Assembly: GCA_000091205.1 (NCBI GenBank)
Contig: AP006500.2
DNA from: Cyanidioschyzon merolae
Taxonomy: Eukaryota
DNA: 64,000 nucleotides
Reading direction: 5' to 3' (one strand)
The translations under genes and the position numbers were made by a program. Below, one piece after another: positions 1 through 58,426 of the stretch. Within the stretch, counting starts at the first letter, position 1. Each line of letters opens with the position of its first letter. The notes under the pieces are model-generated. The model made no database searches. It was not told the DNA's origin and worked only from the letters and a program-made list of their open reading frames with translations.

Positions 1-13
1 AGGCAGTCCTCTT

Positions 14-26567: not shown

Positions 26568-29264
26568 TGTGCTGGACTAGGCGTCTGTGAGCGACCACGC
26601 AGAACTCTATCACCAGCGCAAGATCCGCGCCAAGTATCTGGCCCAGCGCTGTAGCAATTATATCCGCAAGAAACACCCTCAAAAGCTCGTTCAACCAGGC
26701 TCGGCTGGGTGCCACCTCAAGAGCGCCCTGTGAGCGTGTACTGCCGTCGGTTCGCACGGCACCAATTGCCCCTCTACCGCGGGATCCCGTGTCTCAGAAT
26801 AGGGTCCGAAGTACCTGCGTTGAAAAGTCTGAGGTTACTTTCACCTCAGCGCTTCGCTAACTCGGTGAGCGCTCAGAAGAGGCGCTGCGGCGTTACCGCT
26901 ACGAACGTGGTCCACCGCGAGGTTCGTGTTCCCCCTGAAGACCGTCTCGACGAGCAGCCAAGCTCGCGTTTTCGTCTCTCCAAGCAACGTAAAGTTTCGC
27001 CCTCCAAAACAGACAGAATACCTCTGCAACGAGGCTTTGGCACGTTGATGAATTCCTTCACGAGCGTTTGCGTTTCAGAGCGTTCTGCACAGCACCAGCG
27101 CTATGCCCCGGAGTACTTACACCACACGAAGGCGTTTGAGCAAGCGCGAGCACAGTCCAAAACTGGATCAGGCACTGCTTCACCTGACAACTCGACGATG
27201 CGCGAGATGAAAACGCTCGGTTCCTGAGTCGATACCAAACGAAAACAAAACCTGTACGCGTTGTGCTGCCTTGCCGCGCTACAAACAGTTTCGGATGCGT
27301 GTTATTCGGGGCGAGGCGTCGTGCGCCCAGCGTGTGACACGTGTCCGTACACACGCATCATCGCTTTGGCATGGACATGCGCGAGGTACGATGCAACTGG
27401 GCGAATTTTTTTTTGTTTCACGGAACGTTTCCATGGATCAGGGATTCCAGATTGCGGGATGCGTATTGGTATTCGGAAAATGAGGGAAAATGCTGCATTC
27501 TACGTCCAAGTTCCATGACCAACACTTCCTCTAGGATATACTGGTCGTTTCGTACGTTCTATCGTGCACCGTGTACCTGCCTTGCTGCACGCGCCTTGGC
27601 GCGTATACCGTTGGTGCGGATGCAGTACGGAGACAGAACGGGATTGGCGTGCCGATGAGGGCTTCCGCTCGAGGAATGTTAGACCCGATACGGAGTCAGA
27701 ATTCATTATGATTCTGGGGGCCTGCAAGTTGCGCAGACAGAAGTACTTTATGCGACAGCGCGAAGCGAGATACTAGGACTCAACTGCGACCGGGGCGACG
27801 TCCAGACGCAAGCTACCCGCTCCTAGTCGCAGAAAGAAGTGCATTTCAGACGAGTTGCTGAGATACCACCAAAGTACCCGCCATTTGTGGAGCATGAAGC
27901 ACTCCACAGACAGACTCGTGCGGCTCGCGGGACTTTCCATTTAAAAGGTGAATCTTCGACAATACGGGATCCTTTTCTTCCCTGCAACGCTTGCTGCAGA
28001 GCTGGGAAGAAATTGCTCTCTCGTTGCTAGGTAGTAGTTCGGTTCTGTTTGTTTTTGCCAGTTCTTCGACATGGAGCGCAGCCCTGATCGCACATCGCCG
28101 ATGGCAAGAGGCGGTATCTGCGCGACCAGGTGTGCCTCTGTGCTGCATGGTTAGGGATACTGGTTGCGCAAATGGCAAGCAAGTTGTTGTCGCTGTTGCG
28201 TTCAGACCGACGTCTGCGTGCTCGCACTCCCACACCGGCGCATGGGTATGGTAGAGCATTTTCCAGTTCCGTGCGTTTGGAATCAACAGTTGATTTAGGA
28301 AGTCGTCGCAAGTACCTACATTGAATGCAGAAGCAGGAGCAGGTGTTGCTGGTTTTGGGAGCCGCCGTCCGACTCCCGCGAGCGCCTCGTAGCACCAGGT
28401 CTTGGACCGTTGACGCAAAGGCACGGCGTGATTTCTCTGCGGCAAGAGCTGTCTGTCGGGTTTCGGCATGCCGGGCACACTGGACCCTAGCCAAATCCGG
28501 ACCGGGTCGGGACGAAGCTCCCGTATGGCGCACTTGTGTCTGAAACGGTCTGCCTGCGCATCCGGAAACGTTCTCGTTCAGCTGCGCGTCATGTCCAGAT
28601 GATACCGGGCACCCGTCGAGCCGCCACAGAAACACGTCGTCCATCTGGGCACGCTTCAAGAGAAATGGGAATGTAGAGGCTGCTAAATGCCAGAGATAGC
28701 GCGCATTTACGTCCTGTTCCCACGAAACCGAGATCTATGCCGCGTCTTTTCCTTCTATCTCACCCGAAGGCACAACGTTCCAGCGGGTCGGATACGTCCG
28801 TGATACCTCTATCGACAAAGAGAACGCGCGAGTGCCACGGTAGGCGCGTATGAACCGTCCGGAAAAGAAGATGCGGACCATCCAGTGGCAGTCTGGAGCC
28901 TAACACCCACCACCTCAATTGCATACAACGACGATGACGGCTGCCAGAGGCACCCCGACCGAAACTACTTTTCATCAGTGACATTGCAACAACGTATTGG
29001 CCGTCCCCAAGGTATGATACAGCAGCAAAGCGGGTCCATTCGCAACGCGCACACGTCCTGCACGCACGATAGCCACGCATCGCCCGTGCGGCAACGGCAT
29101 CGGATGCCCGCAGCAGCGCCTCGTTTGCCGGATCGCGCGAAACAGGCCCTGGTGCACTCCCATATTGTTCTATTTTGTCCATGCGATCCTATGTGCGTGC
29201 GTGCGTGCGTGCCGCTCGACCTTATCCATGCGATCGGATTCGTGTGCGCGCGTGTATGTGCGGC

Positions 29265-31949: not shown

Positions 31950-33830
31950 ATATTCGGAGGTGGTGGCGGCTGCGGCCGCCCGCCGTTGCCAGGATTTCTG
32001 GCGGTACGCCTCCCGGTCTACTTGGACTAGGCACCTGCTGCTGATTTTGTTTTCTGCTTATATGATATCACCTTAAGAGGTTGCCCGACAAAGCTGGCTC
32101 TCATTAGCTCCGGGGGTCGCTTAATCATCAACACGCATCTTTCTATATTGATAGCGGCGTTAAAGTCTCGGTTCACAAACTCTATACGTTGATTGCCGTC
32201 GGTAGTTGTACTCACCAGTGCGAGTAGTCCAGGAACTTTTGCCCTGCTTTCCATTTGCTGTTTGGTCAGCGCTCCGTACTTTTTTATATCCTCAGAGTTC
32301 CACTGGCACTTTTGCATCTCGACCCTTTGGATTGTACACCTCGGCTCGTGGTGTGTATGTATGACGTTCGGAACTCATCTATCGGTATTGTGAGAAAACG
32401 GTGTGCGTACTCGTTGTACGCTCGTGTCGACGGAGCGGGCGTAGACTCTTTTTCGGACGCCCAGTGCCCTGATCCGTACGCTACTATAAGCCTTTGTCTC
32501 TCGTCTTCGTTCAGGGCACTCAACTGGTTGAAAAAGTTGGCAAATGCACGCTGCTTCCCATAGTATAAGTTCATGTGCTGACGAGCCCACCGGGCGGCTT
32601 GGTATACTCCTTTCACAGCTCCTCGTCATGAGCAGCGCGAAGTGGTATGAATTCTCAGAGGGCTCGAAAGTTCGCTCCGCGACTCGTCATTTTGCTGAAC
32701 TCCTCCCTGCTTACATCGAACTTCGGACTGATCTCTTTCATGATGCCGTAAAGGGCTGCGGAGTCGATTGTCACAAAATGTGCATTGATCTCGCATAACG
32801 GAACGACATGGAAGCGCTTACCCGGAAACGCAGCCATTCGTTTCTCCGACTCTTCATTTGCTTGCACACCTGGTTCCATCTCCGCCTTGCGTTCGAGTTC
32901 TCGGTCCAAAAACACGAAAGGGCGCAGGATTAGGCGATAGCATCTTTCTTCATCTTTTTTCAACGCTGGCATCTTTTTGTGCTCAGTTGACAAACCCTAG
33001 GACCGTGCGGCGCTCTTGGATGGCCACATGGAGTAGAGAAGCTTCATTCCTTCTCCTGCGTGACGTCTTCCTGTCGACGAATTCGATCTTCTGTTCATGC
33101 TGGCGATCGTCCGAAATGCCATTGATGATGGTCCGTATCCTTTTGCGAGAGAGGCGCGGGTAGAGTCCAAACATGGAACGTATCATGAAACGTTCGAGGT
33201 TCATGTTCAAATGGTTTTTCAGATTCGTGAGACACTTTTTAGACCCGTATTCATACATATTATCGTGACCCCTGTATCGAGTACTGTTGGAGCGGAATTT
33301 GGCGTAATTTTCGTGGAGGCCCTGCACTCGCTCATTTCTCCTCGACATTTCATATGTGCCCAGTATCAAGTGGCGAATGAAGGTCTTGTTGAAAAATTCC
33401 TTCGGAATCTCGGTTGTTTCCATATGCGTCACGTCGCGATTCGTCTCCCACACCAAATGCACGAGTCCTGAAGAACCGTTTCGAATGCTACTGGAGTAGG
33501 ACGCCACACGCTTTCTGATAGTCTCGTCCATCCTTGTCTCGTACGGATCCTTGCAATGTCCAAGAAGACAGGGTTTCACTACCATCTCGATGCACTGTCG
33601 TCTTTCTTGCAGCCATTGACGTCTGGCCTCCTGCCTTAGCTTCTTCGTGTTGTCTCGTTCATCCGGGATCGGCTCTGTTTTCGTTTCTTTCCGTCAGCCG
33701 GCGACAGTGGTCCTCCAGGATCCTCCACTTCCATGTCCATAGCTTGCCTTTTTACTTTTGAAAAAGAACGCACTTTAGACACTTCTGCTATAGACCCCGG
33801 AAAATCACTTGAGTAGACTATACTGGAGAT
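31950..33830 (-). mobile_element. old, internally deleted copy (copy 3) of the Fanzor/TnpB-like element
   Basis: Four -strand ORF fragments in different frames (32027..32317, 32284..32616, 32655..32993, 32983..33585) are homologous to the N-terminal, central and C-terminal parts of the nuclease in copies 1/2. RuvC-III 'FVNRDFNAAINIERC' and 'IPIDEFRTSYIH' are present. The RuvC-I region is deleted. Flanks show diverged homology to the copy-1 termini. Confidence 0.55.
32027..33585 (-). pseudogene. TnpB/Fanzor-like RuvC nuclease gene remnant (frameshifts plus ~250-aa internal deletion)
   Basis: see mobile_element 31950..33830. The N-terminal 200-aa ORF is ~50% identical to ORFs 49441..49707 and 48676..49398 of copy 1. 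Confidence 0.55.
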
Positions 33831-35541
33831 TAAAGTACAATGGAGATGAAAAACTATGCTTCGATATGACTTTAACGCGTATGCACCTTGTACGTTAGAT
33901 AAACACGCTAAGTGTAAGGATCGCATTTCCCTTCAATCACGAGATGCGCTTCCTATCTCACGCCTGCCAGATATGATGCTGCGAGTATCGACTGCACTAT
34001 ATAGAAAATAGAACAGAAATTATCCAATAACTAGCAACGAGATTGGGATTCCTTTCCGTCTCTACGATAAACGTTAAAAGGAGGAAAACGTTTCCACACG
34101 TTCAAAAGTCTACCGTATAGGCGGAAGGTCCAGCGACCCGGAAGAGTGCGCCGGGCTCGTGCTCCATACCCCCAATAGCAGGTGCTTTAGAGCGATCTGA
34201 GCAGCTCGTATCGAGCGCAATTCATTCTGGGATTCGAAGCGGGTAGTACGCGCCTGCGCGTCGCCCTGGTCTCCTTAGATATCGATTCGCGCTGTCGCAG
34301 GCAGTAGGTCCGTCTGCGCAGCTTGCAGGCTCCCAGCATGATCATTAGCCCTGATCCCGTGTCAGGTGTTGCGTTATTCGAGTCGACACCCTCAGTGGTA
34401 TGGCGAAGCCGTTTTGTCTCCGTGCAGCACCCGCTCCAGCGATATAGGCGCTATGGTAGGTTCCCAGGACAGGCACTTGGCTTACGATAGAACGCAAGAA
34501 ACGACCGGTGCGTCCGAAAGAATGCATAAGTAATGGAGCTTGAAGGTAGATGCTTCATGATGGACGCTTTCCAGATCATCAATACCCGTCCCGCAGCAAG
34601 GGATCCATGGTCACGATAAACGTTTCGTCATCTGAAAAAATGACAGCGGCTGCACGAAAGATTGCGCAAAGCGTTGGCTGATCGCCGCATATTGTTTGTT
34701 GGATGCGAGCATGTTGTCGATGCGTCTACATGGGTACGGCAATGGCAGCGCCTATTTGTTTGAACGCACTATGATTCCTGAAAGCAAGTCTGAGCGGCTA
34801 GTCGCACGACCTGTGGACTTGTGCAGCATGACGAATGCTGGTCTTGATACTGATCGTCATCGCACCGTTGGGGTTCCCAGGCTCGGTTCAACGATCCCAC
34901 TCGATTCGAAAAATCGATTCTGGAGCGTCCAAGCAGCACGTGCCTACTCAAGAAACCCTCATGGAAGGCACCAGCGCGCTTCTTCGCTCCACAGAGCCGA
35001 CGAAGGTCAGTGGCAGCAAGGCGGTATCGATGCTGATATCACGGGCGGAAGATCTCACGAACGTAAACAGCCCCCGTTTAGCCATTTTTGACACGGAGGA
35101 AGCCCTGTCACAACGCCACGGTTCCGCCCAGTGTGCCAGTGAAACACGGAAACCGCGATGCATGTTTCCGAGCTTCGCACATCTCATCAAGGCTTTCACG
35201 TTTGTTCTGCGTAGTCCTCTGAAAAATTTCCGGTGTGCCTTGGAGCCGGCCCCGGTTTCCATTTACAAAATAGAGGATTCTGTAAGCCAAAGGTCTTCCT
35301 ATGCGTACAACAGCGCTGCTGGTCGGATGTGTTTCAGCAGTATCGAACACCTTGCGCAGCGTTGCGAGGCGAGAGCCCCGTTCACGGCACCCGATGCGGT
35401 CGATAGCCCTGTATCATCATCCACGTGAGCATCCCGCACAACATTAACCGGCTTCGCAAGGCAGCACTAACCGTGGAATACGCACCGGCATCCGGTTCAC
35501 GGACTCTGCAAGATACATTCACTGCGCGTCAGTGCAGGCCG

Positions 35542-43000: not shown

Positions 43001-43324
43001 ACTCCAAAGTTTCCTGTCATACTAGAGAGTCCAAGGAATATAACGTACGTTTCCACGTCTTCGTCGATTTGCTGCTGTACGCTCGAAGGCACAGCGTCTA
43101 TACAGAATAGCTTTGAAGCGCGGTGTACGCACGCGCGATGCGCTGCGCTGCGCGCCCAGATGGCACCCGGGTTCGGATTCGTTCGCGTTATCTCCCCGAA
43201 CGTTGCCGGTACGCGGCAAACGTGTACCATAAACCGCACTTGGGAGGCTGTCACTACGATTCGTGACTGTGAGTGCCACTGATAGAACCGGAACGAGTTT
43301 GTAGCGAAGACCAAGGTTAGTGCG

Positions 43325-46300
43325 GTGTCGTTCGCGGTGGCAATGGCGTTCGTTACTTTCGGGGTCGTGTCTGGAGGCACCGGGCGGCAACCGCTAGCTG
43401 ACAGGTCACCGGCGTTCTTGAATCAGCACCCAAGAAAGACAAGCCGATCGGTGCGGTGTCGACGGCGAAGATTCTCGCGTAAAGTGTCTCGAAGATGTCT
43501 GCTGAAGCTCTGCAGCGTTGCTGAACGACAGTCATCCGACTCGGTGCGACGAGAGCAGGGACAGAAGCGGGGCAGCAGTAGCAGCGCCAGCAGCCGTGAT
43601 GAGCGCTATGCGCGGAACGCAGCGGAACAGCGCCAGGCAAGCGACTCTGTATCGACGGAGACGCGAGCCCGAGTGTCTCGAGCGCTCCTACAGGGCGCGC
43701 AGGGGGTGGGCCTCGGCCTCTACTGGATTGCTCGGCAAGCGGTGCGTGTATGTGTGCCGATGGCTCGCTCGGCGTTTAGCCAGCTGTCAACGCTTGTGCA
43801 AGACCATTCCAGTCGCGCGTTCACCTCAGTGGGGGTCCAATCACAGCCAGAACCGCATCATAAGCCGTACGTTGCATCTGAAGCGGACGAGGCAGCGCGG
43901 GCGCGGCCTAACGACACAGCCGTTGGTGCGGATCGTGCTCAGCGGCGATCTAATCATAAGAAACGGGGGCCACGTTCAGGTCCACCATCGGGAGCGAATG
44001 CTCCAGAGCAAGCAGACGAGATGTCAGCTCGACTGCGGAGAAAGTACCTTCGATCGTTTGGGAGCATTCCGGAAGTTGTACTCTTTGACCTTGTCGCCGA
44101 ATGTGAAATGCGAAAGCAATTTGCGCTACCAGAGGAGACTCCATCAAATATGTCGCTTTTAGGGCAGCGAGCCTGCTATATCCCGTATGAGCTGCAGCGC
44201 ATTATTTTCGACGAAATTTTGACGCCAGATTTTGCCGCCTCTGACGCTGACCGCGATCTGTTTCAGAGCAGCAATACATCCATTCCGCTCGGCGCCAAAC
44301 ACACGTTGCGAGCTACAGACGGCTCAGCGGCGTCCACCCCGAGAGCACCCGAGGTCGCTGTGCCGGTTCCCGTTCATATCATGGATTCGCTGGTGGCGGC
44401 TGTGGCACCCTGGAGCGCCGGCACTGGGAGTCCGGGGAGCGCACCAAAGGCGGCAAATTCGCCGAATGATTGGAGTCAAACTGCGACAGCGCCTCGAGTC
44501 GGGGTCCAGGGCGAGTCGCCGGCATCTACTTCCAACCTGGACGATATGGTACCTGCAGCAGCAGCAGCAGCGGCAGCAGCAGCAGGGCAAGTATCCGTGG
44601 ATTCTTCCGCCCGCAGGGGCAGCATGCTGTACATCCCGATATCGGCGCTCGGGAGCTTGTGGCAAGCCATCTCGGCAATGAGTGCGGGCGGACGCAAACG
44701 GCGCGAGGAGGCGCAACGTATTCGTACGTACTCGAATGCCGCCGACGCTATGGCTCGCGAGGATGCCGTTATGGCGGGTCTCGCTGGCGCAGACGGTGGA
44801 AGCACCATGGCCTCGGCATTTGCAACAGCGAGCGCCATTATGGCGAGCACACCGACGCGATCGCCATCGATACCCGTGCAGGGCGCCGAGGCTGGAACTA
44901 CCGCTAGTACGCGCGAAACGGAACAGAAGGCCTCGCGTCCAACAAATGGATCCGTGGAATCAATCGAGGTATTGAGCAGACCGCAGGCATCGGCTGCCAA
45001 CTTGGGCAATCAGCAGAAGCGAGATCGCACGGAGTCGAAAGAGGGGACGGGTGCGAAGCAGAGCGCACCAGTGAACCCGTCATCAGCGTCTGCTGCATCC
45101 GCTGCAGCTACCAGTACAGAAGTAGCTGCAGCGGATGCAGCAGAAAGTCCTCTGTCGAAAGACAAGACGAGAAACTGGTGGTCGACGCTTTTCTCGTTTA
45201 CTTGGCCACGCCCGCGGAACGCTGTCGACTCGGGATCTGCGACTGCGACTAACTCGGAGGATCATGCAATTGAATCCATCCAGCGCCTGTTGCTTTCACG
45301 ACATTACGGGGCAGGCGCTGGCCATGGCCCTGTGGATGCTGCCGTCTTCGATGAGCTCGTCGATCGAGTGGAGCAGCTGACGCTTCGCGCTGCAGCAGAA
45401 GCGGCCATGGCGATTCGCACGCGAAAACAAGCCATTGCATTTCTGGAAGAGGTAGGTGTGGCACCGTTGTTGAATGCACTGAGCATGACGGACTCGCTGC
45501 AGCTCTCGAGGCCGGATGCTGGACGCCGCAGGAACAGCAACAGCAACACCAACCTAGACGATGAAACCGCATCACAGAGAAAGCGCCCACAACAAGAACA
45601 GCAACGTGAAGCCGCCTTCACGGTATCCCTAGCTGTGGCTGCACTCGCAAATCTGACCAACGTCTTGCCTCGCTGCAAACCGCAAATCCTTCGTTATCCA
45701 GGCCTCTTGGATGGTCTGTTGCGTATCTTGGAAGCACCGGTAGCCGGAGAGTCATGGGAGATGCAAGGCAAGTGGAGCGCATGTATGCTCATCGGCACCC
45801 TGATGATGGATGCTGCCACGAGCGATCGTGCCCTCTTCTTCCGGAATCGTCGACTGGTTCGCGTGCTCGAGTCCATGGCAGGCGGCACACGGGTCGGCTA
45901 CCCGGAGGATGTTGCACGGGCATCGCGTCGGGCGCTCGCTTGTCTGGGCGTGCATCACTGGAGGCCGCGCGTTCGAGGCCAGCGCGGTTTGCGCATCCTT
46001 GCACTTGACGGAGGTGGCACTCGGGCGCTCATGTCTTTCGAGATTCTGAAGCACCTAACCAAATTGACTGGCTGCCAGTTGCATGAAATGTTCGATATCA
46101 TTTGCGGAACCTCGACGGGGGCGATTATTGCCGGCTCGTTGGGGATTCGCCGGCGTCCAGTTGAGGAGGTCGAGAGCCTCTACCGTGAACTAATCGGCAA
46201 AATTTTCGCCAAAAAGCTGAGCAGTGCGCCGAAAATGTTGCTCACTCGGGCCTACTACGATACGGACTTGTTTGAGAGCATTCTGAAACGTGAGGCAGGC

Positions 46301-47197
46301 TCATTGCGGATGATTGATTCCACCATGGACCGGGATATGAACTACGTGTTCTTCGTAAGCTCCGTGATGAATCGACGTCCGCACCAGCTGCATCTGTTTC
46401 GAAACTATTGCCACGCACCAGGCCAGGAGTCCAGATACCCAGGGACTGTGGATGCAACCCTATGGCAGGGTATGCGGGCCTCGTCGGCGGCTCCGACGTT
46501 TTTTTCGGAAATTGTATTGAATGGACTCATTCACGCAGATGGAGCTCTGGTTGCGAATAATCCCGCAGGGGTGGCAGCGCACGAGGCACGCCGCTTGTTC
46601 CCGAATGTGCCTATCGAGCTCTTGGTGAGCGTGGGAACCGGAGTCGCCGAGAAGACTAGCCCTCTATCGCCGCTAAGCACCACGGACAGTGGTGTGTCCA
46701 CGGGCACCAGAGAGGGCAGCGGTGGCGACGGCGGTGCCTCAACCGAGAGCGAAGCTGCGAGTGCGCTTCGTGAAGCTGCCACGACTTCGGCGATTTCCGC
46801 AAGTGGTGGTGATGGTGCAGATGCCGCAGCTGCTGCCGTCCCGAGCCGAATGAGCTGGAACGACGTGATCAACTCGATTGTGGACTCTGCAGTCGGCACC
46901 GAGAGTGTGCATCACATCCTGGAAGATGTGTTGCCTGCAGATGTTTATTTTCGATGCAATCCAGAGATCAGCGTGATGAATATTGATGAGGTTCGTCCCG
47001 GCAAGCTCATGGAAATGATTCGATGTGCACAGGACTACATCGCCGCGAATGCTGATCGCTTTGATGAGTTAGCGGCACGGCTGCGCCCGAAAATGCCCCA
47101 GAATTTACTAGAACGGATCCGTTTTGAGCTGCAACAGGAGGCCAGTCTGATTCTCGACTTGGACGATGCACGGGAAGGGCCACTTCCTGCGCTTTAG
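43325..47197 (+). CDS. patatin-like phospholipase with an N-terminal armadillo-like helical region (iPLA2/PLAI-like)
   Basis: 1290-aa ORF; patatin motifs 'ILALDGGGTRALMSFEILKHL' (GGGxR), 'ICGTSTGAIIAG' (GxSxG) and 'DGALVANNP' (DGA/G dyad); preceded by ARM-like repeats ('LANLTNVLPRCKPQILRYPGLLDGLLRILE'). Confidence 0.75.
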   Translation: MSFAVAMAFVTFGVVSGGTGRQPLADRSPAFLNQHPRKTSRSVRCRRRRFSRKVSRRCLLKLCSVAERQSSDSVRREQGQKRGSSSSASSRDERYARNAAEQRQASDSVSTETRARVSRALLQGAQGVGLGLYWIARQAVRVCVPMARSAFSQLSTLVQDHSSRAFTSVGVQSQPEPHHKPYVASEADEAARARPNDTAVGADRAQRRSNHKKRGPRSGPPSGANAPEQADEMSARLRRKYLRSFGSIPEVVLFDLVAECEMRKQFALPEETPSNMSLLGQRACYIPYELQRIIFDEILTPDFAASDADRDLFQSSNTSIPLGAKHTLRATDGSAASTPRAPEVAVPVPVHIMDSLVAAVAPWSAGTGSPGSAPKAANSPNDWSQTATAPRVGVQGESPASTSNLDDMVPAAAAAAAAAAGQVSVDSSARRGSMLYIPISALGSLWQAISAMSAGGRKRREEAQRIRTYSNAADAMAREDAVMAGLAGADGGSTMASAFATASAIMASTPTRSPSIPVQGAEAGTTASTRETEQKASRPTNGSVESIEVLSRPQASAANLGNQQKRDRTESKEGTGAKQSAPVNPSSASAASAAATSTEVAAADAAESPLSKDKTRNWWSTLFSFTWPRPRNAVDSGSATATNSEDHAIESIQRLLLSRHYGAGAGHGPVDAAVFDELVDRVEQLTLRAAAEAAMAIRTRKQAIAFLEEVGVAPLLNALSMTDSLQLSRPDAGRRRNSNSNTNLDDETASQRKRPQQEQQREAAFTVSLAVAALANLTNVLPRCKPQILRYPGLLDGLLRILEAPVAGESWEMQGKWSACMLIGTLMMDAATSDRALFFRNRRLVRVLESMAGGTRVGYPEDVARASRRALACLGVHHWRPRVRGQRGLRILALDGGGTRALMSFEILKHLTKLTGCQLHEMFDIICGTSTGAIIAGSLGIRRRPVEEVESLYRELIGKIFAKKLSSAPKMLLTRAYYDTDLFESILKREAGSLRMIDSTMDRDMNYVFFVSSVMNRRPHQLHLFRNYCHAPGQESRYPGTVDATLWQGMRASSAAPTFFSEIVLNGLIHADGALVANNPAGVAAHEARRLFPNVPIELLVSVGTGVAEKTSPLSPLSTTDSGVSTGTREGSGGDGGASTESEAASALREAATTSAISASGGDGADAAAAAVPSRMSWNDVINSIVDSAVGTESVHHILEDVLPADVYFRCNPEISVMNIDEVRPGKLMEMIRCAQDYIAANADRFDELAARLRPKMPQNLLERIRFELQQEASLILDLDDAREGPLPAL

Positions 47198-47228
47198 GGG
47201 ATGGACAAGCCACCACCGCCGTTCTAAG

Positions 47229-47396
47229 TCGAACGACGCCAACGGTATACAGTAGTGGCGACCGGCGCCCTAGACGAAACGTCTCCAACTGACGTGCAGA
47301 CGCCTCCCCGCCTTTTTGGACCGGCCACCTACTACTGCTTCCAACTTTTTCTCGTATAGTTCGACTTTGAGAGGTTGTCCAATAAAGTTCCCTCTT
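47229..47396 (-). ncRNA. candidate omegaRNA scaffold region (overlaps the 3' end of the ancestral nuclease ORF plus a short flank)
   Basis: The 3'-terminal block is far better conserved between copies 1 and 2 than the upstream coding sequence. It ends in a hairpin with an 8-bp perfect stem in the solo copy at 54379-54401. The position matches where TnpB/Fanzor omegaRNAs are encoded. No direct evidence of transcription. Confidence 0.25.
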
Positions 47397-49707
47397 CATG
47401 ACTTTGGAGGTGTTTTCTCCAGCACCGCACATCTCCGTATATTGATAGCGGCATTAAAGTCTCGGTTCACAAATTCCATACGTTTCTTCCCATTGGTAGT
47501 TGTACTTACTAGTGCACCTAGTCCTCGCACTTTCGCTCTACTTTCCATTTGCTCCTCCGTCAGCGGTCCATACTTTTTCATATCCTCAGGGCTCCTCTGG
47601 AAATTTTCCATATCCACTCTCTGAAGTGTACAACCCAGCTCATGGTGTGTGCAGGACGTTCGAAACTCATCTACAGGTATTGTAACAAAACGCCTTGCGC
47701 ACTCCTTGTACGTTCTTGTCGTTGGAGCTGGCGTAGTTCCTTTTTGGGTCTTCCAGCGCCCTGCTCCATACGCTATTACGAGCCTTTGAGTCTTGTCTTC
47801 TTTGAGGGCGCTCAACTTATTGAAAAAGTTCGCGAATGCCCGCTGCGTCCCACCGAATAGATTCATTCGCAAACGAGCCCACCGGGGCTTGATATACCCC
47901 TCCCACAGCGCATCCCAATGGGCAACACGAACTTCCATGAATTTCCGAAAAGCTTCAAAGTCCGCGCCTCGGCTCGTCACCTCGCTCGAAGATTCCAGGT
48001 GATCCTTCATTCCTGCATTCCATGCAGCAATTTTCTTCCTTGCATTCATTATACCGGACTCTCGATAGTATCTTGCTCTCGAGAACCTCAACAAATGCAT
48101 GTCTTTCAGACGTAAGTTGCCGTCAATGCAATCTTCCGCACACTTTGGTGCTGCGATGGTAATGATATTCGTGTTCCCAGGGTCCATGCCAATGACAAAG
48201 TCGTTATCCTGCACTTTCTGCGCCGCAGGACCCGCCTCGTTCTTTTCTTCATGCTTCGTCGCGTCAAGCATAAAGGCGTTATCCTGCACCTCCTGCATCA
48301 CAGGATCCGCCTCCTTCCCAACTTCATCCTTCGTCACATCAACGATAAAGTCGTTACCCTCAATCTCCTGCGCCACAGGATGCTCCTCTTTGTTTTCTTC
48401 ATGCTTCGCCGCGTCAACGACAAGCTTGTTATCCTCCACCTCCTGCGTCGCAGGTTCCGCCTCCTTCTCATCTCCATCCTTCGCCACGTCAACGAGAAAG
48501 TCATTATCCTCCACCTCCTGCGTCGCAGGATACACCTCTTTGTTTTCTTGATCCTTCGTCACGGGTGCAGCCGAGTGAGGGACTGGCCGATCTCTCTTCA
48601 ACCGCCGATAGTGTGCACACAAGGCTACTCCATCGGTTTCGATCATCCCAGTGAACAACTTTTGCTTGCTCACTCTCAGGCGTTTGAAATCGAAGATGTT
48701 CTTCCAGTACGTCTTCCGGTTTTCACCGGAGAATTCCTCCCTGCTGACACTGAACCCCGGACTGATCTCCTTAAAGATGCCGTAAAGGACGCCGGAGTCG
48801 ATAGTCTCAAAACTTGAATTGATCCTGGACAACGGATCAGCGTGGGAGCGATTCTCCAGAAGCGCAGCCTTCCCTCTCTCCGACTATTCGTTTTTTCCAC
48901 ACCCGGCTCCATGTCGGCCTTGCGTCCGTGCTTTCGGTTCAGAAACATGAAACAGCGCAGGATTAGTTGATAAAATCTCTCTTCGTGTTTTTTCATATTA
49001 GGTAATTTTCCTGTTGGACTGAGTAGCCCCAAGACCGCACGGTGCTCTTGAATAGTCGCGCGGATTACGGAAGCTCCATTTGTGCTCCTGCGTGATGTCT
49101 TCTTATCGACAAATTCGATCTCATCTTCATACTTTCGATCGTTCGTGATGCCGTTGATCATCCCCCATATTCCTTTGCGAGAGATGCCCGGGTAGAGTGC
49201 AAACACGGCGCATATCATGAAACGTTCCGGGTACATAGTTAAATGGTTCTTCAGATTCGTGAGGTACTTCTTCGGCCCGTAGGCGTAAATACACGAGTCA
49301 ACCCTGTATCGGGTACGCTCGAAGCGGTATTCGGCGTAGTTTTCGTGGAGAGCGTGCACTAGCACATTTTCCTTCCGCGCTTCCCCTGTACCAAGCATCA
49401 GGTGACGAATAAAGGTCTTGTGGAAAAACTCGTCTGGAATCTAGACCGTTTCCATGTGCGCCACATCGCGATACATCTCCCTCGCCAAATGCATCAGTCC
49501 TGACGACGTCTTGACAATACTCTTGGAGTACGAGTCGACACGTTTTTTGATAGCGTCCCGCAACTTTTCCTTGTAGGGATGCTTGATATGTCCAAGAAGA
49601 AAGGTTTTCACCACCATCTCGTCGTACAGCCGTCTTCCTTGCCGCCTTCGACGTAGGGCCTTACCGTTTCGGTCCTTCTTCTCTTCTTTTTGTTCTGGAC
49701 TCGGCAC
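47396..49707 (-). pseudogene. TnpB/Fanzor-like RNA-guided-nuclease-family gene (RuvC-I, Zn-finger-like, RuvC-III), disrupted
   Basis: Three collinear -strand ORFs (49441..49707, 48676..49398, 47396..48832). RuvC-I '[21 protein letters not shown]', 'LVIAYGAGRW', 'VTIPVDEFRTSCTHHELGC' and C-terminal 'FVNRDFNAAINIRRC' match the TnpB D...E/ZnF...DxNAAxNI layout. In-frame TAG at 49441-49443 ('METV*IPDEF' where copy 3 has 'METTEIPKEF'). Frameshift near 48700-48830, where copy 3 reads straight through. Stop is premature relative to copies 2 and 3. Confidence 0.7.
48197..48565. repeat. ~72-bp minisatellite (5 units) inside the copy-1 nuclease ORF, encoding 24-aa repeats directly N-terminal to RuvC-I
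   Basis: Units 'gtcgttatcctgcacNtcctgcgccgcaggacccgcctc...catgcttcgtcgcgtcaagcataaag' repeat head to tail. Protein repeats '[25 protein letters not shown]' etc. The last unit becomes '[14 protein letters not shown]'. Copy 2 has a single unit. Confidence 0.75.
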
Positions 49708-50151
49708 TATATTTGGGTTTTTTTGGCAGCCGGCGACACTGGGCCTCCAGGATCGTCGACTTGCTATTTACTAGCTTTTCCGTTTTTTAGTTTTTTTTTG
49801 AAAAAGAACACTCTTTGAACGCTTCTTTTATATTCTACGAATAAACACTTGACTAGACTTGTTTGAGGGCTGGAACAAAAACGAACTGAAAGACTGTACC
49901 TGGCTAAGACCTCAACAGAAAACCAACTTTTTACAGCTGAACACCACGCTATTGATACCAATCGAGTTTCCCTTTAACGGCGACGCGGCGCTTTCGGAAC
50001 TCGATCCGCCGCATCTCCCGGCTGGATCCTGCTGCGGTTCAGAGACCGCAAGTCGAAAAGTGTGTGGCTGTAGTTGAAGGCAAATATGGTGCACCACGCG
50101 GCAGTAAACAACAGAAATAGGTTGTGAGACGCGACAGTCGTGCGATGAAGT

Positions 50152-50943
50152 GTGTGGCGGCTTCTGCAGCGCTCGTCGTCAGCCACTCTTTTAAAACATA
50201 TTGTCGTTCTTCTATCAACTGTGTTTGCAGAAGACTCTACTGTAAAACGTTTGACCAGGTGTGATTCGAAACGATCGGAAATGTTGCGCAAAGTATCCTT
50301 AGTGTTCCTGGTGACCCTGCTCTACGTGCTCGCTGCAGTTGTGTCGAAGCCGGTGCGTGGGCTCTCTCAGAGCAGCACGATTGCCGAGCTGCTCGCTGCG
50401 TCTCCAAGCTCGTACCTGCAGAACGCGCTCACAAGCGGTGCGTTTCTCGTGAATAACTCAGCCGGAAGTATTCAGTTGTTTGACGTTACACAGAACTCGT
50501 TGTTAACGAGCGTGGGCCTCTCTACCCTGATATCCACGTTGAACAAGTGCGGTATCCAGGAGCTGCACGTGCAGACGGACGCGATCGAGTACGCGTACGT
50601 TGTTGAGGGTGAGGGCACTTTCACGCTGTGGTCGTCTAACGGCTCGGTGGTATTGTTGAAGGCCCCCTTGAAGCCTGGCGACGTGGCGATTATTCCAGCC
50701 GGCTGGCCGCACTTTTTCACCGGGTCCGAGACGTCCACGACGCCGCTGGTCTTTGTCTCGACATTCACCAGCGGAGAGCCACAGGTTTATTTCCTGGCTG
50801 GTGCTGGGAATCTATTCGCGAACGTGCCATCCGAGGTCGGTAGCAGTCTGTTTAATGTTACCGCGTCGCAGTACGGATCGTTTTTCAGAGCGGAATCGAC
50901 TGTGGGTGTCGTCTTTAATGAGACCTGTTTGGGGAATGCCTGA
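50152..50943 (+). CDS. secreted cupin (germin-like) protein, tentative; probable start at the Met near 50282 (signal peptide 'MLRKVSLVFLVTLLYVLAAVVS')
   Basis: 263-aa ORF; 'PGDVAIIPAGWPHFF' resembles germin motif 2 (PxGxxHxxxN-like) and 'ELHVQTDAIEYAYVVEGEG' motif 1; N-glycosylation-like sites; lies between the two young Fanzor-like elements. Confidence 0.4.
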   Translation: MWRLLQRSSSATLLKHIVVLLSTVFAEDSTVKRLTRCDSKRSEMLRKVSLVFLVTLLYVLAAVVSKPVRGLSQSSTIAELLAASPSSYLQNALTSGAFLVNNSAGSIQLFDVTQNSLLTSVGLSTLISTLNKCGIQELHVQTDAIEYAYVVEGEGTFTLWSSNGSVVLLKAPLKPGDVAIIPAGWPHFFTGSETSTTPLVFVSTFTSGEPQVYFLAGAGNLFANVPSEVGSSLFNVTASQYGSFFRAESTVGVVFNETCLGNA

Positions 50944-51094
50944 ACGATTTGAAATCGGGAGATATCAGTGCTGCTTGCGAATGCTGTCGGGGATGTAGCT
51001 CTGCTGCGCTCCGTTGGTTACATGGACAGGAAATTTGCGGATTCTTAAAAGATAGATACGTGACGCCGCTGCTAGCGAGCCCCTTTCAAAACAA

Positions 51095-53523
51095 AAACGC
51101 TGCCGCTATCAGTACAAAAGTGGCTACCAACGCGCCCTAGACGAAACGTCTCCAACGGACGTGCAGACGCTTCCCAGTCTTTTTGGACCGGCCACCTACT
51201 ACTGCTTCCAACTTTTTCTCGTATAGTTCGACTTTGAGAGGTTGTCCAACAAAGTTCTCTCGTGTCCACTCTGGAGGTCTTTTCTCCAGCATCGCACATC
51301 TCCGTATATTGATTGCAGCGTTAAAGTCTCGGTTCACGAATTCCATACGTTTCTTGCCATCGTTCGTTGTACTCACCAGTGCGAGTAATCCCCGAACTTT
51401 CGCCCTCCTTTCCATTTGCTCTTCCGTCAGCGGTCCGTACTTTATTATATACTCAGGGCTCCTCCGACGCTTTTCCATCTCAACCCTTTGAAGTGTGCAC
51501 CCCAGTTCATGGTGTGTAAACGATGTTCGGAACTCATCTATTCGTATCGTAACGAAACGCCTTGCGCACTCCTTGTACGTTCTTGTCGTTGGAACTGGCG
51601 TGCTCCCTTTTCCGGGTACCCAGAGCCCTGCTCCATACGCTACTACAAGCCATTGGCTCGTCCCCTTTGAGGGTGCCCGACTCATTGAAAAAGTTGGCAA
51701 ATGCACGCTGTTTTCCGCAGTACAGATTCATATGCAGACGAGCCCACCTGAGCTTCGCGTACTCTTCACACACCTCCTCGTCATGAGAAACGCGAATTTT
51801 CATGAATTTCGGAAGAAAAAAAGAAAGTTCAATCGACGGCTCGTCACGTGCCTGATCGCTTCCAGATTCTCCTTCACTCTTGCGTTCCATTTCTCACTTT
51901 GATTCCTCGCATTCATCATTGCTTGTTCTCTGTACTAACTCTCTCTCGAGAACTTTAAACGACGCATGTCGCTCTGGCATAAGTTGTCGTCAGCGCCATC
52001 TTCCAAACGTTTGGGTGCTACGATGGTTATTACATTCGTGGTCCCGAGGTTAAGGCCGACGACAAGATCGTTATCCTGGGGATTATACGTGCCAGGGCCC
52101 GTCTTCTTGTGTTCGTGCTTCGGCAAGGGCGACAATGTAGATGAGGTAGGACGATCTGCCTTCAAGCGCTGATAGTGTACACATATGGATTTCCCATTGT
52201 AATCGATCGTCCCCGTGAATGCCATTTTTTGCTCGTTTTGAGGCTCTTGAAATCGAAGATATTCTTCCAGTACGTCTTCCGGTTTTCACCGGAGAATTCC
52301 TCCCTGCTGACACTGAACACCGGACTGATCTCCTTAAAGATGCCGTAAAGGACGCCGGAGTCGATAGTCACAAAACTTGAATTGATCCTGGACAACGGAT
52401 CAGCGTGGGAGCGATTCTCCAGAAGCGCAGCCTTCCCTCTCTCCGACTATTCGTTTTTTCCACACCCGGCTCCATGTCGGCCTTGCGTCCGTGCTTTCGG
52501 TTCAGAAACATGAAACAGCGCAGGATTAGTTGATAAAATCTCTCTTCGTCTTTTTTCAAATTAGGTAATTTTCCTGTTGGACTGAGTAGCCCCAAGACCG
52601 CACGGTGCTCTTGAATAGTCGCGCGGATTACGGAAGCTCCATTTGTGCTCCTGCGTGACGCCTACTTGTCGACAAATTCGATCTCATCTTCATGCATGCG
52701 ATCGTTCGTGATGCCATTGATAATTGCCCAGAATCCTTTGCGAGAGATGCCCGGGTAGAGTGCAAACACGGCGCATATCATGAAACGTTCCGGGTACATA
52801 GTTAAATGGTTCTTCAGATTCGTGAGGTACTTCTTCGGCCCGTAGGCGTAAATACACGAGTCAACCCTGTATCGGGTACGCTCGAAGCGGTATTCGGCGT
52901 AGTTTTCGTGGAGAGCGTGCACTAGCACATTTTCCTTCCGCGCTTCCCCTGTACCAAGCATCAGGTGACGAATAAAGGTCTTGTGGAAAAACTCGTCTGG
53001 AATCTAGACCGTTTCCATGTGCGCCACATCGCGATACATCTCCCTCGCCAAATGCATCAGTCCTGACGACGTCTTGACAATACTCTTGGAGTACGAGTCG
53101 ACACGTTTTTTGATAGCGTCCCGCAACTTTTCCTTGTAGGGATGCTTGATATGTCCAAGAAGAAAGGTTTTCACCACCATCTCGTCGTACAGCCGTCTTC
53201 CTTGCCGCCTTCGACGTAGGGCCTTACCGTTTCGGTCCTTCTTCTCTTCTTTTTGTTCTGGACTCGGCACTATATTTGGGTTTTTTTGGCAGCCGGCGAC
53301 ACTGGGCCTCCAGGATCGTCGACTTGCTATTTACTAGCTTTTCCGTTTTTTAGTTTTTTTTTGAAGACGGACGCGTTTCTTACGTGTCTACTATAAACCA
53401 CGAAAAACACTTGACTAGATATGTTTGAGGTGTGAAACAAAAACGAACTGAAAGACTGTACTTGGCTACGACCTGAACGGAAATCCAACTTTTTTCGGTA
53501 GAACAACACGCTACTGATCAGGA
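51095..53523 (-). mobile_element. Fanzor/TnpB-like element, copy 2 (~2.4 kb), more decayed
   Basis: Six -strand ORF fragments in shifting frames (51137..51706, 51534..51890, 51935..52225, 52162..52395, 52368..52595, 52662..52961, 53004..53270). 5' half nearly identical to copy 1 (ORF 53004..53270 = ORF 49441..49707, 88/88 aa). 3' half about 80-85% identical, with the full-length C-terminus '...FVNRDFNAAINIRRCAMLEKRPPEWTRENFVGQPLKV...RFV'. Confidence 0.65.
51137..53270 (-). pseudogene. TnpB/Fanzor-like nuclease gene, copy 2, with multiple frameshifts and the same in-frame TAG as copy 1
   Basis: RuvC-I 'DNDLVVGLNLGTTNVITIVAP', 'LVVAYGAGLW', 'IRIDEFRTSFTHHELGC', 'NRDFNAAINI'. TAG at 53004-53006 identical to copy 1. 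Confidence 0.65.
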
Positions 53524-54333
53524 TGGCGTTCCCCTTCGACGAAGGCATGCGCATCGTGTCAGTTGACTGACTGATCTCCCAGTTGCGCTCATTTAGCGCA
53601 ATGCATCCACTGCGCGCGACGCTACTCCGATCGATGAAGGACACGTGTCCGATACCCCGCCTTGGCACATGCGTGTTCGCATCCCACTGCAGCCAAAATA
53701 AAGTATCGTAGATCGCAAACTCACGTAGAATGATCTCTTGCTACAGGCTCTGTCGCTGGTGCCCATTGCAGTACCGCCCTGACATACGTGGAGATGTAGG
53801 GGCCTGGCACGATACCTCGCGATGCTTCTAACAAAAGCATCGCGTTCTCTGCGGCTTACACTTGTGTGGATAAGGTACACAACACTGTACTCAATAGAAA
53901 TTTCGTTAATTTTATTGATCGTATATAAACAAGACACGGAATGATTCCTGACCAAGGATATTCGTTTAATCAATATGCTTGTTATGCATGCCGCACCGAC
54001 ACTGGAATAAGGACCTGAACTGAAATTTGCATCTATCCGGCGTCATGGGCTGGAACTGATACCCGTTCAAGTCATTGCCATCCTGCCGTGGTTGTCCAAG
54101 TAATGGTGCCTGCTTCGTCCTCCGGATCCGGCGATCTTGGCAGAGGCAGAGCACGTAGGTAGCGTCCAAGTCTGCCACGAGGTTTGAGCCTTGCATCTCG
54201 CCTGGCACGATCGTGGCACTTGACAAAAGCGCATACTGTATTCTGGTCTACTCTATCAGATTATTTTCAAGAGCCTAACCCGTACATCGAGCCCGAACGA
54301 GGCACCCCTGGAAAGAAACGCCTTTCGAAAGTC

Positions 54334-54400
54334 GAACGGCGCCAGCGGTGTACAGTAGTGGCGAGTGGCCCGCCCTAGAAATGACGTCTGCAACTGACGT
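54334..54400. repeat. solo 3'-terminal fragment of the Fanzor-like element (~65 bp) with a perfect hairpin
   Basis: 'agtcgaacggcgccagcggtgtacagtagtggcgagtggcccgccctagaaatgacgtctgcaactgacgtgcagacgc' aligns to 47229-47290 and 51095-51170; stem 'cgtctgca'/'tgcagacg' with a 7-nt loop; homology stops abruptly after the hairpin. Confidence 0.5.
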
Positions 54401-54793
54401 GCAGACGCATCCAAAATAAGATACCACCTCAGGAAATTTCCTTATACCTCCTCTACGGTATTCGTCGGCGAGCTACGTGGAAGTTCGTCTACGATTGTTG
54501 TGATCTCTGAGCGCAGCACTGCGGAACCCTTGGCACCAATTACTGATGAGGTTGTTGATGGGAAGCATAGGAGTTCTGTCTAGTTTCTGAAAAAGACACT
54601 GAGCGCTTGTGCTAGATGTGCTCAACGCTAGACAGTCTACGGGAGATTTAGGTCGGACTCTGGACAATTGACGGGCGATCACTCGTGCAGCTACGCAAAA
54701 GAAGTTTTTTGCTGGATACGCACACCTATGCGAGCGATTCTAGCCGGTGACGTGATCGGCAGCTTTGCACCGGAGAAAATCTAATCCAAGAAA

Positions 54794-55869
54794 ATGCAAG
54801 CCCTATTCGTTTCTGTTCCGCTGTACCAGGAAAGACATATTGTTTGCGCGCGCGCTGCAACTCGAGCACCGTTCCCGCTGTGTACCGAACATGACAGGTG
54901 CTTCGCAGCTCGATACCGTCACCGCTGTCACCATCCGCTGCCCGTGGGGGTGCAGCGTTCGCCTGTAGTGCGCCGGCATCGTATGCCGCATCTTCGTATG
55001 GGCCCGAAACAGTCGCAGATCGCCGTGATCACTGGCTCGTCCTCTGGGGTCGGTCTGTATGCAGCTCGCGCTCTGATCAACAAGGGCAACTGGAACATCG
55101 TCATGGCATGTCGTGACGTCGACCGGGCGGAACGTGCAGCAAACAGCGTGAACCTTCCAAAGGACGCCTATACAGTGCTGCATTGTGATCTGGCAGATTT
55201 CGCCTCTGTGTTGAAGTTTGTGAGAGCGCTATCGAGTGTGGCGCGCATCGATCACCTGGATGCCCTGATCTGCAATGCCGCAATATGGCATCCGCAGGAC
55301 AAGAAACCGCGTTTCACGGTGGGCGGCATCGAGGAAACCATGCAGGTTTGCCATCTGAGCCATTTGCTTCTCTGTGGGGAGCTGTTGCCGAAGCTGAAAA
55401 AATCGCGCAGGCGCATTGTGTTTCTGACGACTCAGACACACTCGCCGAATTCGTTGCCGGGAAAGATCCCCCGCTGGCTCGTCTCGGGGATTCGTCTAGT
55501 CTAGCCGCGGGGCTTGGTCCGCAGACGACGGACATGGTAGAAAGTGGCCCGTTTGAGCCCACAAAAGCTTTCAAAGACGCCAAAGCCGAGAACGTGTTGA
55601 CAATGAAGGCGCTCAGTGATCGATACGGCCGCGACGGGGTGACCTCTGTGGCGATTTTCCCGGGATGTGTCGCCGACAGCAACCTCTTCCGCGAAAAGCG
55701 TGGCTGGTTCCGCTACGTATTCTTCCCGATTCTTCAGAAGTACATCACTCGGCAATACTTTCCCAATGATGAGGCCGGACGCCGTGTAGCCGAAATGGCG
55801 ACCCAGGGACAGTTCTCGGACTCGGGCTCGTATTATCAGTGGCGTGGCAAATATACGGATGGGGGATAG
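54794..55869 (+). CDS. por: light-dependent NADPH:protochlorophyllide oxidoreductase (POR), with a +1/-1 frameshift at a C5 run near 55475-55480
   Basis: ORFs 54794..55504 and 55285..55869 together align to POR from memory: 'IAVITGSSSGVGLYAARAL..WNIVMACRDVDRAERAA..LPKDAYTVLHCDLADFASV', 'ICNAAIWHPQDKKPRFT', 'YKDAKAENVLTMKALSDRY', 'FPGCVADSNLFREKRGWFRYVFFPILQKYITRQYFPNDEAGRRVAEM..SDSGSYYQW'. Frames switch exactly inside 'aaagatcccccgctg'. Confidence 0.75.
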
Positions 55870-56350
55870 AAGACGAAACCGCAGGTTATTGAACCAACGT
55901 ACGAAATCGACAAGGCAGATCAGCTTTACGAACTGAGTCTTGATCTGATCGACCAGGCTTTACGGAGGCGAGGCCTCAAGTCGACTACCTTGGTCCCTGT
56001 CTAAGGTTTGTTAGTGATGAATATGGGATGCGCCTTCGAAGCGCAGACCGCTGCGTCAAGGACGCATGTGGGAGCAACAGCGTAACGATGAAACGGCAAC
56101 CCACTGTTACGATCGGATAGTGATCGGGTGAAAGGGCACTCCTCCTGATGTGGAGAACCAAAATTGCTTCGCAAGTCATAAAGCGTACTGCAGTAGTGAT
56201 TAATATAGCTATAGCTATGACCTACTTCGCATCGAATGCGCCAGAGAATGCTAACTGCGGTCGTTCAAGAGGGCAGAGCGCGTTTATTTGGGTAATCTGT
56301 AACTCTTTTTGCCATAAAGGATACGGCAATAGAGGCGAACTTGCAGACGT

Positions 56351-57670: not shown

Positions 57671-58426
57671 TTGTTGATTAGTCCTACTCCGACTCCGAGT
57701 GCCGTTATTTCGACTGGAACTGCGTCTCCAGGTGCGTCGGTATTGGTGTCGACCTCGACGCGTGCCTCAGCAAGTGCTTCAGTATGAACCACTGCGTTGA
57801 CGCCAGCTATCTGTACGGCCCCGCGCGCGTACACAGAACCAAAATATGTTTCAGTTATTGATATACTCATTCCATGAGGATCTTGGTTGTGCAATATAGT
57901 TCGCACGTGCATGCACGCAACCTTTCAGTCCGGGTTGGGGGCCCATAATTTAATGTTGAGGGTATCTGGACACCAAACATACCCCTAGACGGGATGTCAA
58001 CAAATATACAGATGGCGTGCGGAAAGAGGGAGTTTTTCGTACTGGGGCACAGCAGGCCGGGTCCGAATGTGCGACGGGCATGCTATTAGACCTTTTGGGT
58101 GTTTGGACTCTGCATGTGTATCTGAAACACGACTGCGGCGTAGACGACTATCTTGCATTGCCATTACGAGAGCGCCATCATGAAACTCAGTAGCAGGCGC
58201 TGCAAAATATCTTTGGCCGTTTATTATAGAAATGTCGTGTTGTGGGAGCGCCGTGCGCAGATCTGCGTCATTCAGACGGCGGTGCTTGACGCGCTCCCGT
58301 GCTGCTTACCTCAGAATACTTCGTGGAGCCTGGTGGTGGTAAGGACGGAGACAACAGTGACAACAGTACCAGCAGCTGGAGGCTCTCCTATCCCTGTAGA
58401 TTCTAAGCAACTCGTTTCCCTGGGAG

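Follow-up and report, generated by a model that had tools for sequence, protein, structure and literature searches.

Fanzor1 proteins are eukaryotic TnpB-like RuvC endonucleases, and they are RNA-guided in characterised relatives. The activity of Fanzor proteins was reportedly published in 2023. The red alga Cyanidioschyzon merolae carries CMe-1A, a Fanzor1 transposon family; its roughly 150 copies each match a 3169-bp consensus at about 80% identity (PMC3627910). Terminal inverted repeats are absent from CMe-1A, whose first 635 bp at the 5' end also occur in TE-N2_CMe (PMC3627910). Here we analysed a stretch of 64,000 nt from C. merolae contig AP006500.2 (the window), in which two decayed CMe-1A copies have the same in-frame TAG at codon 111 of the Fanzor1 open reading frame (ORF). 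This TAG very probably arose after both copies already existed as old, dead elements, and it then spread from one to the other by non-allelic gene conversion.

The shared stop codon and other lesions

Blastn with the 3169-bp CMe-1A consensus (Additional file 2 of Bao & Jurka 2013, PMC3627910) found three nuclease copies in the window. All of them are on the minus strand and all are CMe-1A members.

47213..49983, minus strand: copy 1, CMe-1A (Fanzor1) element, consensus ~702-3169; pseudogene without the TE-N2_CMe-type 5' module
51082..53576, minus strand: copy 2, CMe-1A element, consensus 671-3167; heavily decayed pseudogene
32006..34632, minus strand: copy 3, CMe-1A element, consensus 2-3080; 3'-truncated, with an internal deletion and loss of RuvC-I

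The stop codon in question is at the same position of the gene in copies 1 and 2.

49441..49443, minus strand: in-frame TAG of copy 1, codon 111 of the Fanzor1 ORF; ancestral GAG (Glu)
53004..53006, minus strand: in-frame TAG of copy 2, codon 111, as in copy 1

At both sites the plus strand reads CTA, and the minus strand around them reads ATG GAA ACG GTC TAG ATT CCA (METV*IP). The equivalent codon of copy 3 is GAG (Glu) at 33409-33411, in METTEIP. The published consensus likewise has GAG at codon 111, as do 47 of 53 related loci.

Other lesions were scored against the published CMe-1A coding consensus, and several of them are also common to copies 1 and 2.

49764..49772, minus strand: lost start and codon 3 TAG; ATG to AGT at 49770-49772, TAG at 49764-49766; copy 2 equivalent 53327-53335
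48884..48897, minus strand: shared lesion, apparently older; 1-nt deletion in an A run (48894-48897) and, two codons on, GAG to TAG at 48884-48886; copy 2 equivalent 52447-52460
47396..47398, minus strand: copy 1-specific TGA (ACA to TGA), the 'TPPKS*' stop, 42 codons ahead of the natural stop

Most family members have ATG at the position of the lost start. Copy 1 also has a frameshift, a 1-nt deletion in a poly-A run near 49725. The second shared TAG (48884-48886) is codon 297, about 550 nt downstream of the codon 111 TAG. Past the TGA, the frame of copy 1 is open to the natural TAG at 47270-47272. Copy 2 has the first six lesions of copy 1 at an offset of 3563 nt, together with lesions of its own: TAG at 52662-52664, -1 at 52228, TAG at 51935-51937, +2 at 51816, and -2 at 51660. 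Its RuvC-I Asp is changed to Asn at 52049-52051 (GMDPG to GLNLG), and its totals are five frameshifting indels and five in-frame TAGs. In copy 3 the ATG is retained, the reading frame shifts at least four times and meets five in-frame stops, and RuvC-I is lost to a 444-nt deletion.

An original prediction, made from the letters of the window, had reported the same TAG in copies 1 and 2 with Glu in copy 3, the inactivation of all three nuclease copies, a frameshift and a 'TPPKS*' stop in copy 1, and at least five frameshifts in copy 2. Our scoring agrees with all of these statements: every copy is a pseudogene, the 'TPPKS*' stop of copy 1 is the TGA, and the five indels of copy 2 include one upstream of the GTG that had been taken as the start. 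The original prediction had overlooked the loss of the start codon and, among the lesions common to copies 1 and 2, the second TAG and the poly-A frameshift.

Two candidate explanations were tried and rejected. An intron, with an AG just ahead of the GTG, might explain the missing ATG; in most of the family, however, an in-frame ATG lies 22 codons upstream, and it is this ATG that was lost in copies 1 and 2. Repeat-induced point mutation might be the source of the stops; copies 1 and 2 differ by 187 transitions and 189 transversions, and GAG to TAG is itself a transversion.

Mosaic identity between copies 1 and 2

The two copies have the same orientation and lie 3.56 kb apart. Identity between them is very uneven, and three segments stand out.

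49171..49802, minus strand: putative recent conversion tract on the copy 1 side, 632 nt, 100% identical to copy 2; holds the TAG, the lost start and the poly-A frameshift
52734..53365, minus strand: putative recent conversion tract on the copy 2 side, partner of 49171..49802
48700..49170, minus strand: apparently older homogenised part of copy 1, corresponding to 52263-52733 in copy 2; 99% identical save for a 75-nt patch (49096-49170, 83%)

The two copies are 81-85% identical at 49803-49975 and 99% identical at 48700-49095. The remainder, including the whole nuclease half, is 57-85% identical, with about 79% for the nuclease half. Per 100 nt, most of the nuclease half is 64-83% identical, and about 90% is reached only near the 3' end. 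The homogenised block of about 1.1 kb is in the 5' half of the gene, and the edges of the 632-nt tract are sharp, with 17 differences in the adjoining 40 nt on one side and 13 in 75 nt on the other. When the 376 differences over 2,523 aligned sites were shuffled 20,000 times, the longest identical run was 91 nt, compared with the 632 nt observed. The sharing of the TAG is not due to chance, and the single origin that the original prediction had assigned to it is supported.

The segments also conflict over the nearest relative. Within the 5' block, copies 1 and 2 match each other best, at 98.5%, and the runner-up reaches 82%. Within the 3' block, the identity of copy 1 is 87% to unrelated loci but falls to 79% against copy 2. 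The similarity between the copies begins and ends at the element ends, no further duplication is seen in 46-55 kb, and the cupin gene between them is unique. Copies 1 and 2 are separate insertions with unrelated flanks. A segmental or tandem duplication would give uniform low divergence and co-duplicated flanks, and we found identities of 57-100% along the unit and flanks in single copy. Gene conversion would give sharply bounded identity tracts and segments that disagree on the nearest relative, and both were found.

The original prediction had called copies 1 and 2 young and had suggested, as one of two options, that the family propagates here by segmental duplication. Neither idea agrees with the data. 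Against the published CMe-1A coding consensus, identity is 86% for copy 1 and 83% for copy 2, the nuclease halves of the two copies are no closer to each other than to unrelated copies, and the flanks and the cupin gene have not been duplicated with them.

Orthologues in related strains

Syntenic contigs were obtained by looking up the ATG-started cupin protein, and all of them are metagenome contigs. L077 aligns to window 40280-60232 at 97.2%, and L078, L079-L081, and L082 align to the window at 93.6-97.5%. In L077, L079, and L082 both copies are in synteny, and codon 111 is GAG in both. L078 covers copy 1 only, which also has GAG. TAG at codon 111 was found only in the window copies and in L002, a copy 1-type contig from another sample (97.4% identical). 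Because related strains carry both copies, both with GAG, the TAG is younger than the copy pair. The original prediction had concluded that the duplication post-dates the inactivation, and this has to be given up.

The orthologues behave differently in different segments. At 49803-49975 they cluster by position, with copy 1 of one strain 98-100% identical to copy 1 of another, and copy 1 only 77% identical to copy 2. At 49171-49802 the two copies within a strain are 99.7-100% identical, and identity between strains is 97-98%. The latter pattern is one of concerted evolution. The 1-nt deletion and the second TAG are present in all copy 1 and copy 2 orthologues except copy 1 of L082, which keeps an intact GAGACAAATGAAGAG and in this segment is down to 83% identity with window copy 1.

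Some contigs end within the repeats. L074 ends at window 48810 and L079-L081 start at 49672, inside the homogenised block, as expected for near-identical repeats, and this is a warning of chimeras. Synteny of L078 (1-6856) breaks at the 3' end of copy 1 (window 47210), where a helicase gene is found instead of the patatin gene. Either the repeat was the site of a rearrangement, or the metagenome contig is chimeric.

A probable history of gene conversion

From the mosaic identity, the segment conflict, and the GAG codons in both orthologues of the related strains, we infer gene conversion as the process. Copies 1-3 are old, independently inserted, and decayed CMe-1A members. Copies 1 and 2 would have undergone repeated non-allelic (ectopic) gene conversion over the block of about 1.1 kb in the 5' half of the gene. 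GAG to TAG at codon 111 would be a single event in the lineage to strain 10D, at a time when both copies were already placed and dead. The latest conversion would then have carried this TAG to the other copy and left the 632-nt perfect tract. The older lesion, consisting of the 1-nt deletion and the second TAG, would have spread between the copies likewise. Compared with L082, the least converted strain, the TAG tract looks copy 1-type in both copies and the deletion tract looks copy 2-type in both; lesions were apparently passed between the copies in both directions. The copies have no present function.

Among other explanations, an assembly artefact fares best, although it is unlikely. The TAG would then really be in one copy, and the 632-nt identity would come from reads merged during assembly or polishing. 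Repeat collapse would also give perfect identity with razor-sharp edges, and short-read metagenome assemblies do break inside the block. However, in L077, an independent assembly of a related strain, the two copies are 99.7% identical over the tract, which makes the homogenisation biological. The TAG allele is also independently present in L002, which answers the assembly error that the original prediction had named as one of two refuting outcomes. The 10D genome was reportedly finished clone by clone, with Sanger reads longer than the 632-nt tract, which also counts against an artefact.

A recent duplication of a copy already carrying the TAG, either segmental or trans-mobilised, is very unlikely. 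It would account for the TAG, the lost start, the poly-A frameshift, and the deletion with the second TAG, all of which are common to both copies at the 3563-nt offset. However, the nuclease halves are too diverged, at about 79% and no closer to each other than to unrelated copies. Moreover, the flanks are not duplicated and the unique cupin gene separates the copies, related strains carry both copies with GAG, and copy 1 of one strain is without the older shared lesion.

We give almost no credence to the idea that the TAG is not a lesion and that the gene is still expressed through readthrough, codon reassignment, or an intron. The frame is open on either side of the TAG, and nothing else is in favour of this idea. 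Of the 12 long host ORFs in the window, which use the standard genetic code, 5 end in TAG, 5 in TGA, and 2 in TAA. Codon by codon, the gene aligns colinearly with the consensus, and TAG stands where the consensus has GAG; this disposes of an intron across the site, which the original prediction had named as a finding that would overturn it. The same copies have no ATG, and they have two frameshifts and at least two further stops. The codon after the TAG is ATT, and we know of no read-through context that it matches, which counts against readthrough as well. Parallel GAG to TAG mutations in the two copies are just as implausible, since the surrounding 632 nt are identical whereas related strains differ from the window at 2-3% of sites, and the one parallel on offer, the GAG to TAG at codon 297, is also common to both copies.

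Gene conversion of the TAG between two copies that were already dead is therefore the explanation that we prefer. Several points weigh against it. The related strains are represented by metagenome contigs; near-identical repeats can give rise to chimeras in such contigs, and several of the contigs end within the homogenised block. The directions of conversion rest on one strain, L082, which was taken as the least converted. The 632-nt perfect identity in 10D is taken from the assembly alone, and the L002 strain is seen by its copy 1-type contig only.

State of the CMe-1A family

The original prediction had left a choice between an extinct family and an intact master copy elsewhere. A survey of related loci gave 71 loci from metagenomes. 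None of the 71 is a fully intact close relative, and almost all ORFs are broken. Only L001/P0005 is nearly intact: its frame shifts in a poly-A run after the ATG, and a TAA cuts it 35 codons short. When the published CMe-1 protein was used as a query, P0005 was the one close ORF to cover more than 77% of it. The majority-rule consensus of 36 decayed copies reads as an ORF that starts with ATG and contains the whole D/E/D triad; its only interruptions are alignment noise in the tandem repeats. From this it follows that each copy decayed on its own from an active ancestor. Intact relatives that are about 42% identical are found in other organisms (P0114, P0120, P0418). According to Bao & Jurka, some CMe-1A copies in 10D are still intact (PMC3627910).

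Ectopic gene conversion may shape the whole CMe-1A family, although we regard this as doubtful. It could patch broken copies from intact neighbours, and breaks made by active Fanzor1 might trigger the exchanges. If so, frequent conversion would explain the presence of intact Fanzor1 ORFs in a family about 80% identical to its consensus, a puzzle noted by Bao & Jurka. The evidence behind this idea comes from two dead partners only, with two-way exchange and mosaics that were converted differently in different strains.

Identity of the encoded nuclease

The nuclease of the window is a Fanzor1, and it is encoded by the sole gene of the CMe-1A transposon of about 3.2 kb. Single-sequence Pfam scans of the window ORFs and seven homologues found no family at E<=0.1, the lone match being PF07282 (E=3.2). 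A family profile search over 1.84 billion representative proteins found 2,144 relatives, mostly of 600-700 aa. A profile of 86 sequences was then compared with the sequences of the Protein Data Bank (PDB), and it matched PpFz of Parasitella (9cf0, E=5.7e-22), SpuFz of Spizellomyces (8gkh, E=6.1e-16), and GtFz of Guillardia (9cer, E=6.8e-10), with alignments covering RuvC-I through RuvC-III. The same PDB sequence search with a shallow 22-sequence profile gave chance matches only.

The structure prediction agrees with the profile search. An AlphaFold model on the 22-sequence alignment was unusable (pLDDT 36), and it was replaced by one on the 86-sequence alignment. What was modelled is P0114, an intact relative that is 42% identical, and not the broken window copies. 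The model has a pLDDT of 90.7 and a pTM of 0.88, and it is predicted to have the Fanzor/TnpB fold, with a REC-like N-terminal part and a split RuvC. Its top seven Foldseek matches in the PDB are all Fanzor1 (SpuFz, GtFz, PpFz; best E=7e-17, TM 0.65/0.72), and Cas12f and Cas12i are far behind.

In the 86-sequence alignment D398 and E569 of the RuvC triad are invariant, and D636 is at least 90% conserved. The corresponding codons of copy 1 are as follows.

47459..48184, minus strand: RuvC catalytic codons of copy 1; Asp 48182-48184 (GMDPG), Glu 47666-47668 (VDEFRTS), Asp 47459-47461 (NRDFNAA)

Copy 1 retains all three codons, the first is Asn in copy 2, and the first is deleted in copy 3. The window copies could not encode an active protein. 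Between RuvC-II and RuvC-III, window 47654-47674 and the family consensus read TSYTHHELGC...RGLLALVST, without CxxC...CxxC. More distant relatives such as P0114 have additional Cys and His in this region.

PF26935 (DUF8286) is a precomputed Pfam match on many homologues (P0003-P0120; L001 gene 10001-12259). Because the homologue family is Fanzor1 by profile and fold, PF26935 falls on Fanzor1 proteins, and DUF8286 appears to be a Fanzor1 domain.

About 80 nt past the stop codon are conserved in the family up to the sharp element boundary. No convincing guide-RNA (omega/fRNA) signal was found at the 3' end: RNAalifold gave no consensus structure, the consensus fold had z=-1.7, and there was no Rfam match. 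A candidate 9-bp stem at the element 3' end had no compensatory changes in a manual covariation count.

Element boundaries and modules

Copy 1 matches the published consensus in two blastn segments, 49983-48484 and 48258-47237, and overall 49983-47237 corresponds to consensus 702-3145. At its 3' boundary, family-wide conservation falls sharply at 47215/47216. Copy 3 has consensus positions 1951-2400 deleted. The blastn identity to the CMe-1A consensus is 83-89% for copy 1, 82% for copy 2, and 79-81% for copy 3. When membership was tested, the 5' 635-bp module common with TE-N2_CMe was found in copy 3 and not in copies 1 and 2. Copies 1 and 2 are 5'-variant or truncated CMe-1A members, and the family has several alternative 5' modules. 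The window contains further pieces of the family.

27424..28049, plus strand: solo TE-N2_CMe-like element, CMe-1A consensus 10-632, 79% identity
54319..54412, minus strand: solo CMe-1A 3' terminus, 97 nt, consensus 3073-3169; upstream of copy 2
53600..54300, minus strand: putative alternative 5' module of about 700 nt, upstream of copy 2; carried by 9-14 other loci
48190..48564, minus strand: 75-nt (25-aa) in-frame tandem repeats of copy 1, adjoining RuvC-I on its upstream side

The segment at 53600..54300 is likely to be the alternative 5' module of a subfamily, replacing the TE-N2_CMe-type module. The order of 3' end, module, and gene seen at copy 2 recurs in L005, L036, L058, and L070. Since it recurs, this order would be either a subfamily architecture that has propagated or the copied product of a nested or tandem insertion.

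No terminal inverted repeats were found at the element ends, which matches the published description; the only long inverted repeat in the window (I1) lies elsewhere. It is formed by the solo element at 27424-28049 and the 5' module of copy 3 (34260-34456), which are about 6.5 kb apart.

The 75-nt repeats make copy 1 exceed the published consensus, which has about one unit, by 300 nt, and their number varies among family members. The 25-aa unit is acidic, with the motif KHEE..ATQEVQDND.

The stretch 47197-47216 holds the 3' end of copy 1 and, no more than about 20 nt away, the stop codon of the patatin-like phospholipase gene, whose ORF ends at 47197. Host genes and element ends are very closely packed in this compact genome. 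L034, from a lineage with about 82% identity, has a CMe-1 copy (582-3002, compared with window 58252-61505) directly beside the orthologue of the Kelch-Hint gene, and none is present there in the window. This difference of insertion site between lineages is thus evidence of past transposition.

Host genes

The window is nuclear DNA with eukaryotic genes, which encode a GATA factor, patatin, cupin, Kelch-Hint, kinesin, condensin, and Efg1. Unique sequence beside copies 1 and 2 is provided by the patatin, cupin, and short-chain dehydrogenase genes. The kinesin ORF (37105-39720) is identical at 851 of 851 residues to BAM82653.1 of Cyanidioschyzon merolae strain 10D. Exact-protein look-ups for the 478-aa, 88-aa, 240-aa, and GTG-started cupin ORFs of the window gave no record.

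Discussion

The family was already on record in 2013, together with its host, its high copy number, and its decayed state, and the finding is the ordinary decay of a known repeat family. On its own the result is of little weight and its uses are modest. It is a caution for dating: under gene conversion, a disabling mutation or a high-identity stretch that is shared between neighbours does not date their duplication. It is also a clean example, backed by population data, of concerted evolution of two dead repeats in a very compact eukaryotic genome. For annotation, the placement of PF26935 (DUF8286) on Fanzor1 proteins may be of use.

The closest described system is CMe-1A itself (PMC3627910). 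The host genome is the same, the window copies align to its consensus at 79-89%, and the family in the window encodes the published CMe-1 Fanzor1 protein, which has Glu at the TAG site. In contrast to the published element, copies 1 and 2 are without the TE-N2_CMe-type 5' module, copy 2 bears a different 700-nt 5' module with a solo 3' end ahead of it, and copy 1 has four additional 75-nt repeats. Sequence exchange between copies was not described by Bao & Jurka (PMC3627910).

The solved Fanzor1 structures (SpuFz 8gkh/9ceu, GtFz 9cer, PpFz 9cf0) have the same full-length fold as the P0114 model (TM 0.65/0.72). Homology to them at the profile level extends across RuvC-I, RuvC-II, and RuvC-III, and the D/E/D triad is kept. 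However, sequence identity is only 11-16%, and the window copies are dead. The canonical TnpB/Fanzor CxxC...CxxC zinc finger between RuvC-II and RuvC-III is absent from this lineage.

The proposed process resembles ectopic gene conversion between nearby repeats or pseudogenes. It differs in that both partners here are dead transposon relics, so there is no phenotypic consequence. Similar to the partners in such systems, copies 1 and 2 lie on one chromosome as direct repeats with a few kb between them, they have short and sharply bounded identity tracts in otherwise diverged copies, and they show within-strain concerted evolution and the apparent transfer of disabling mutations.

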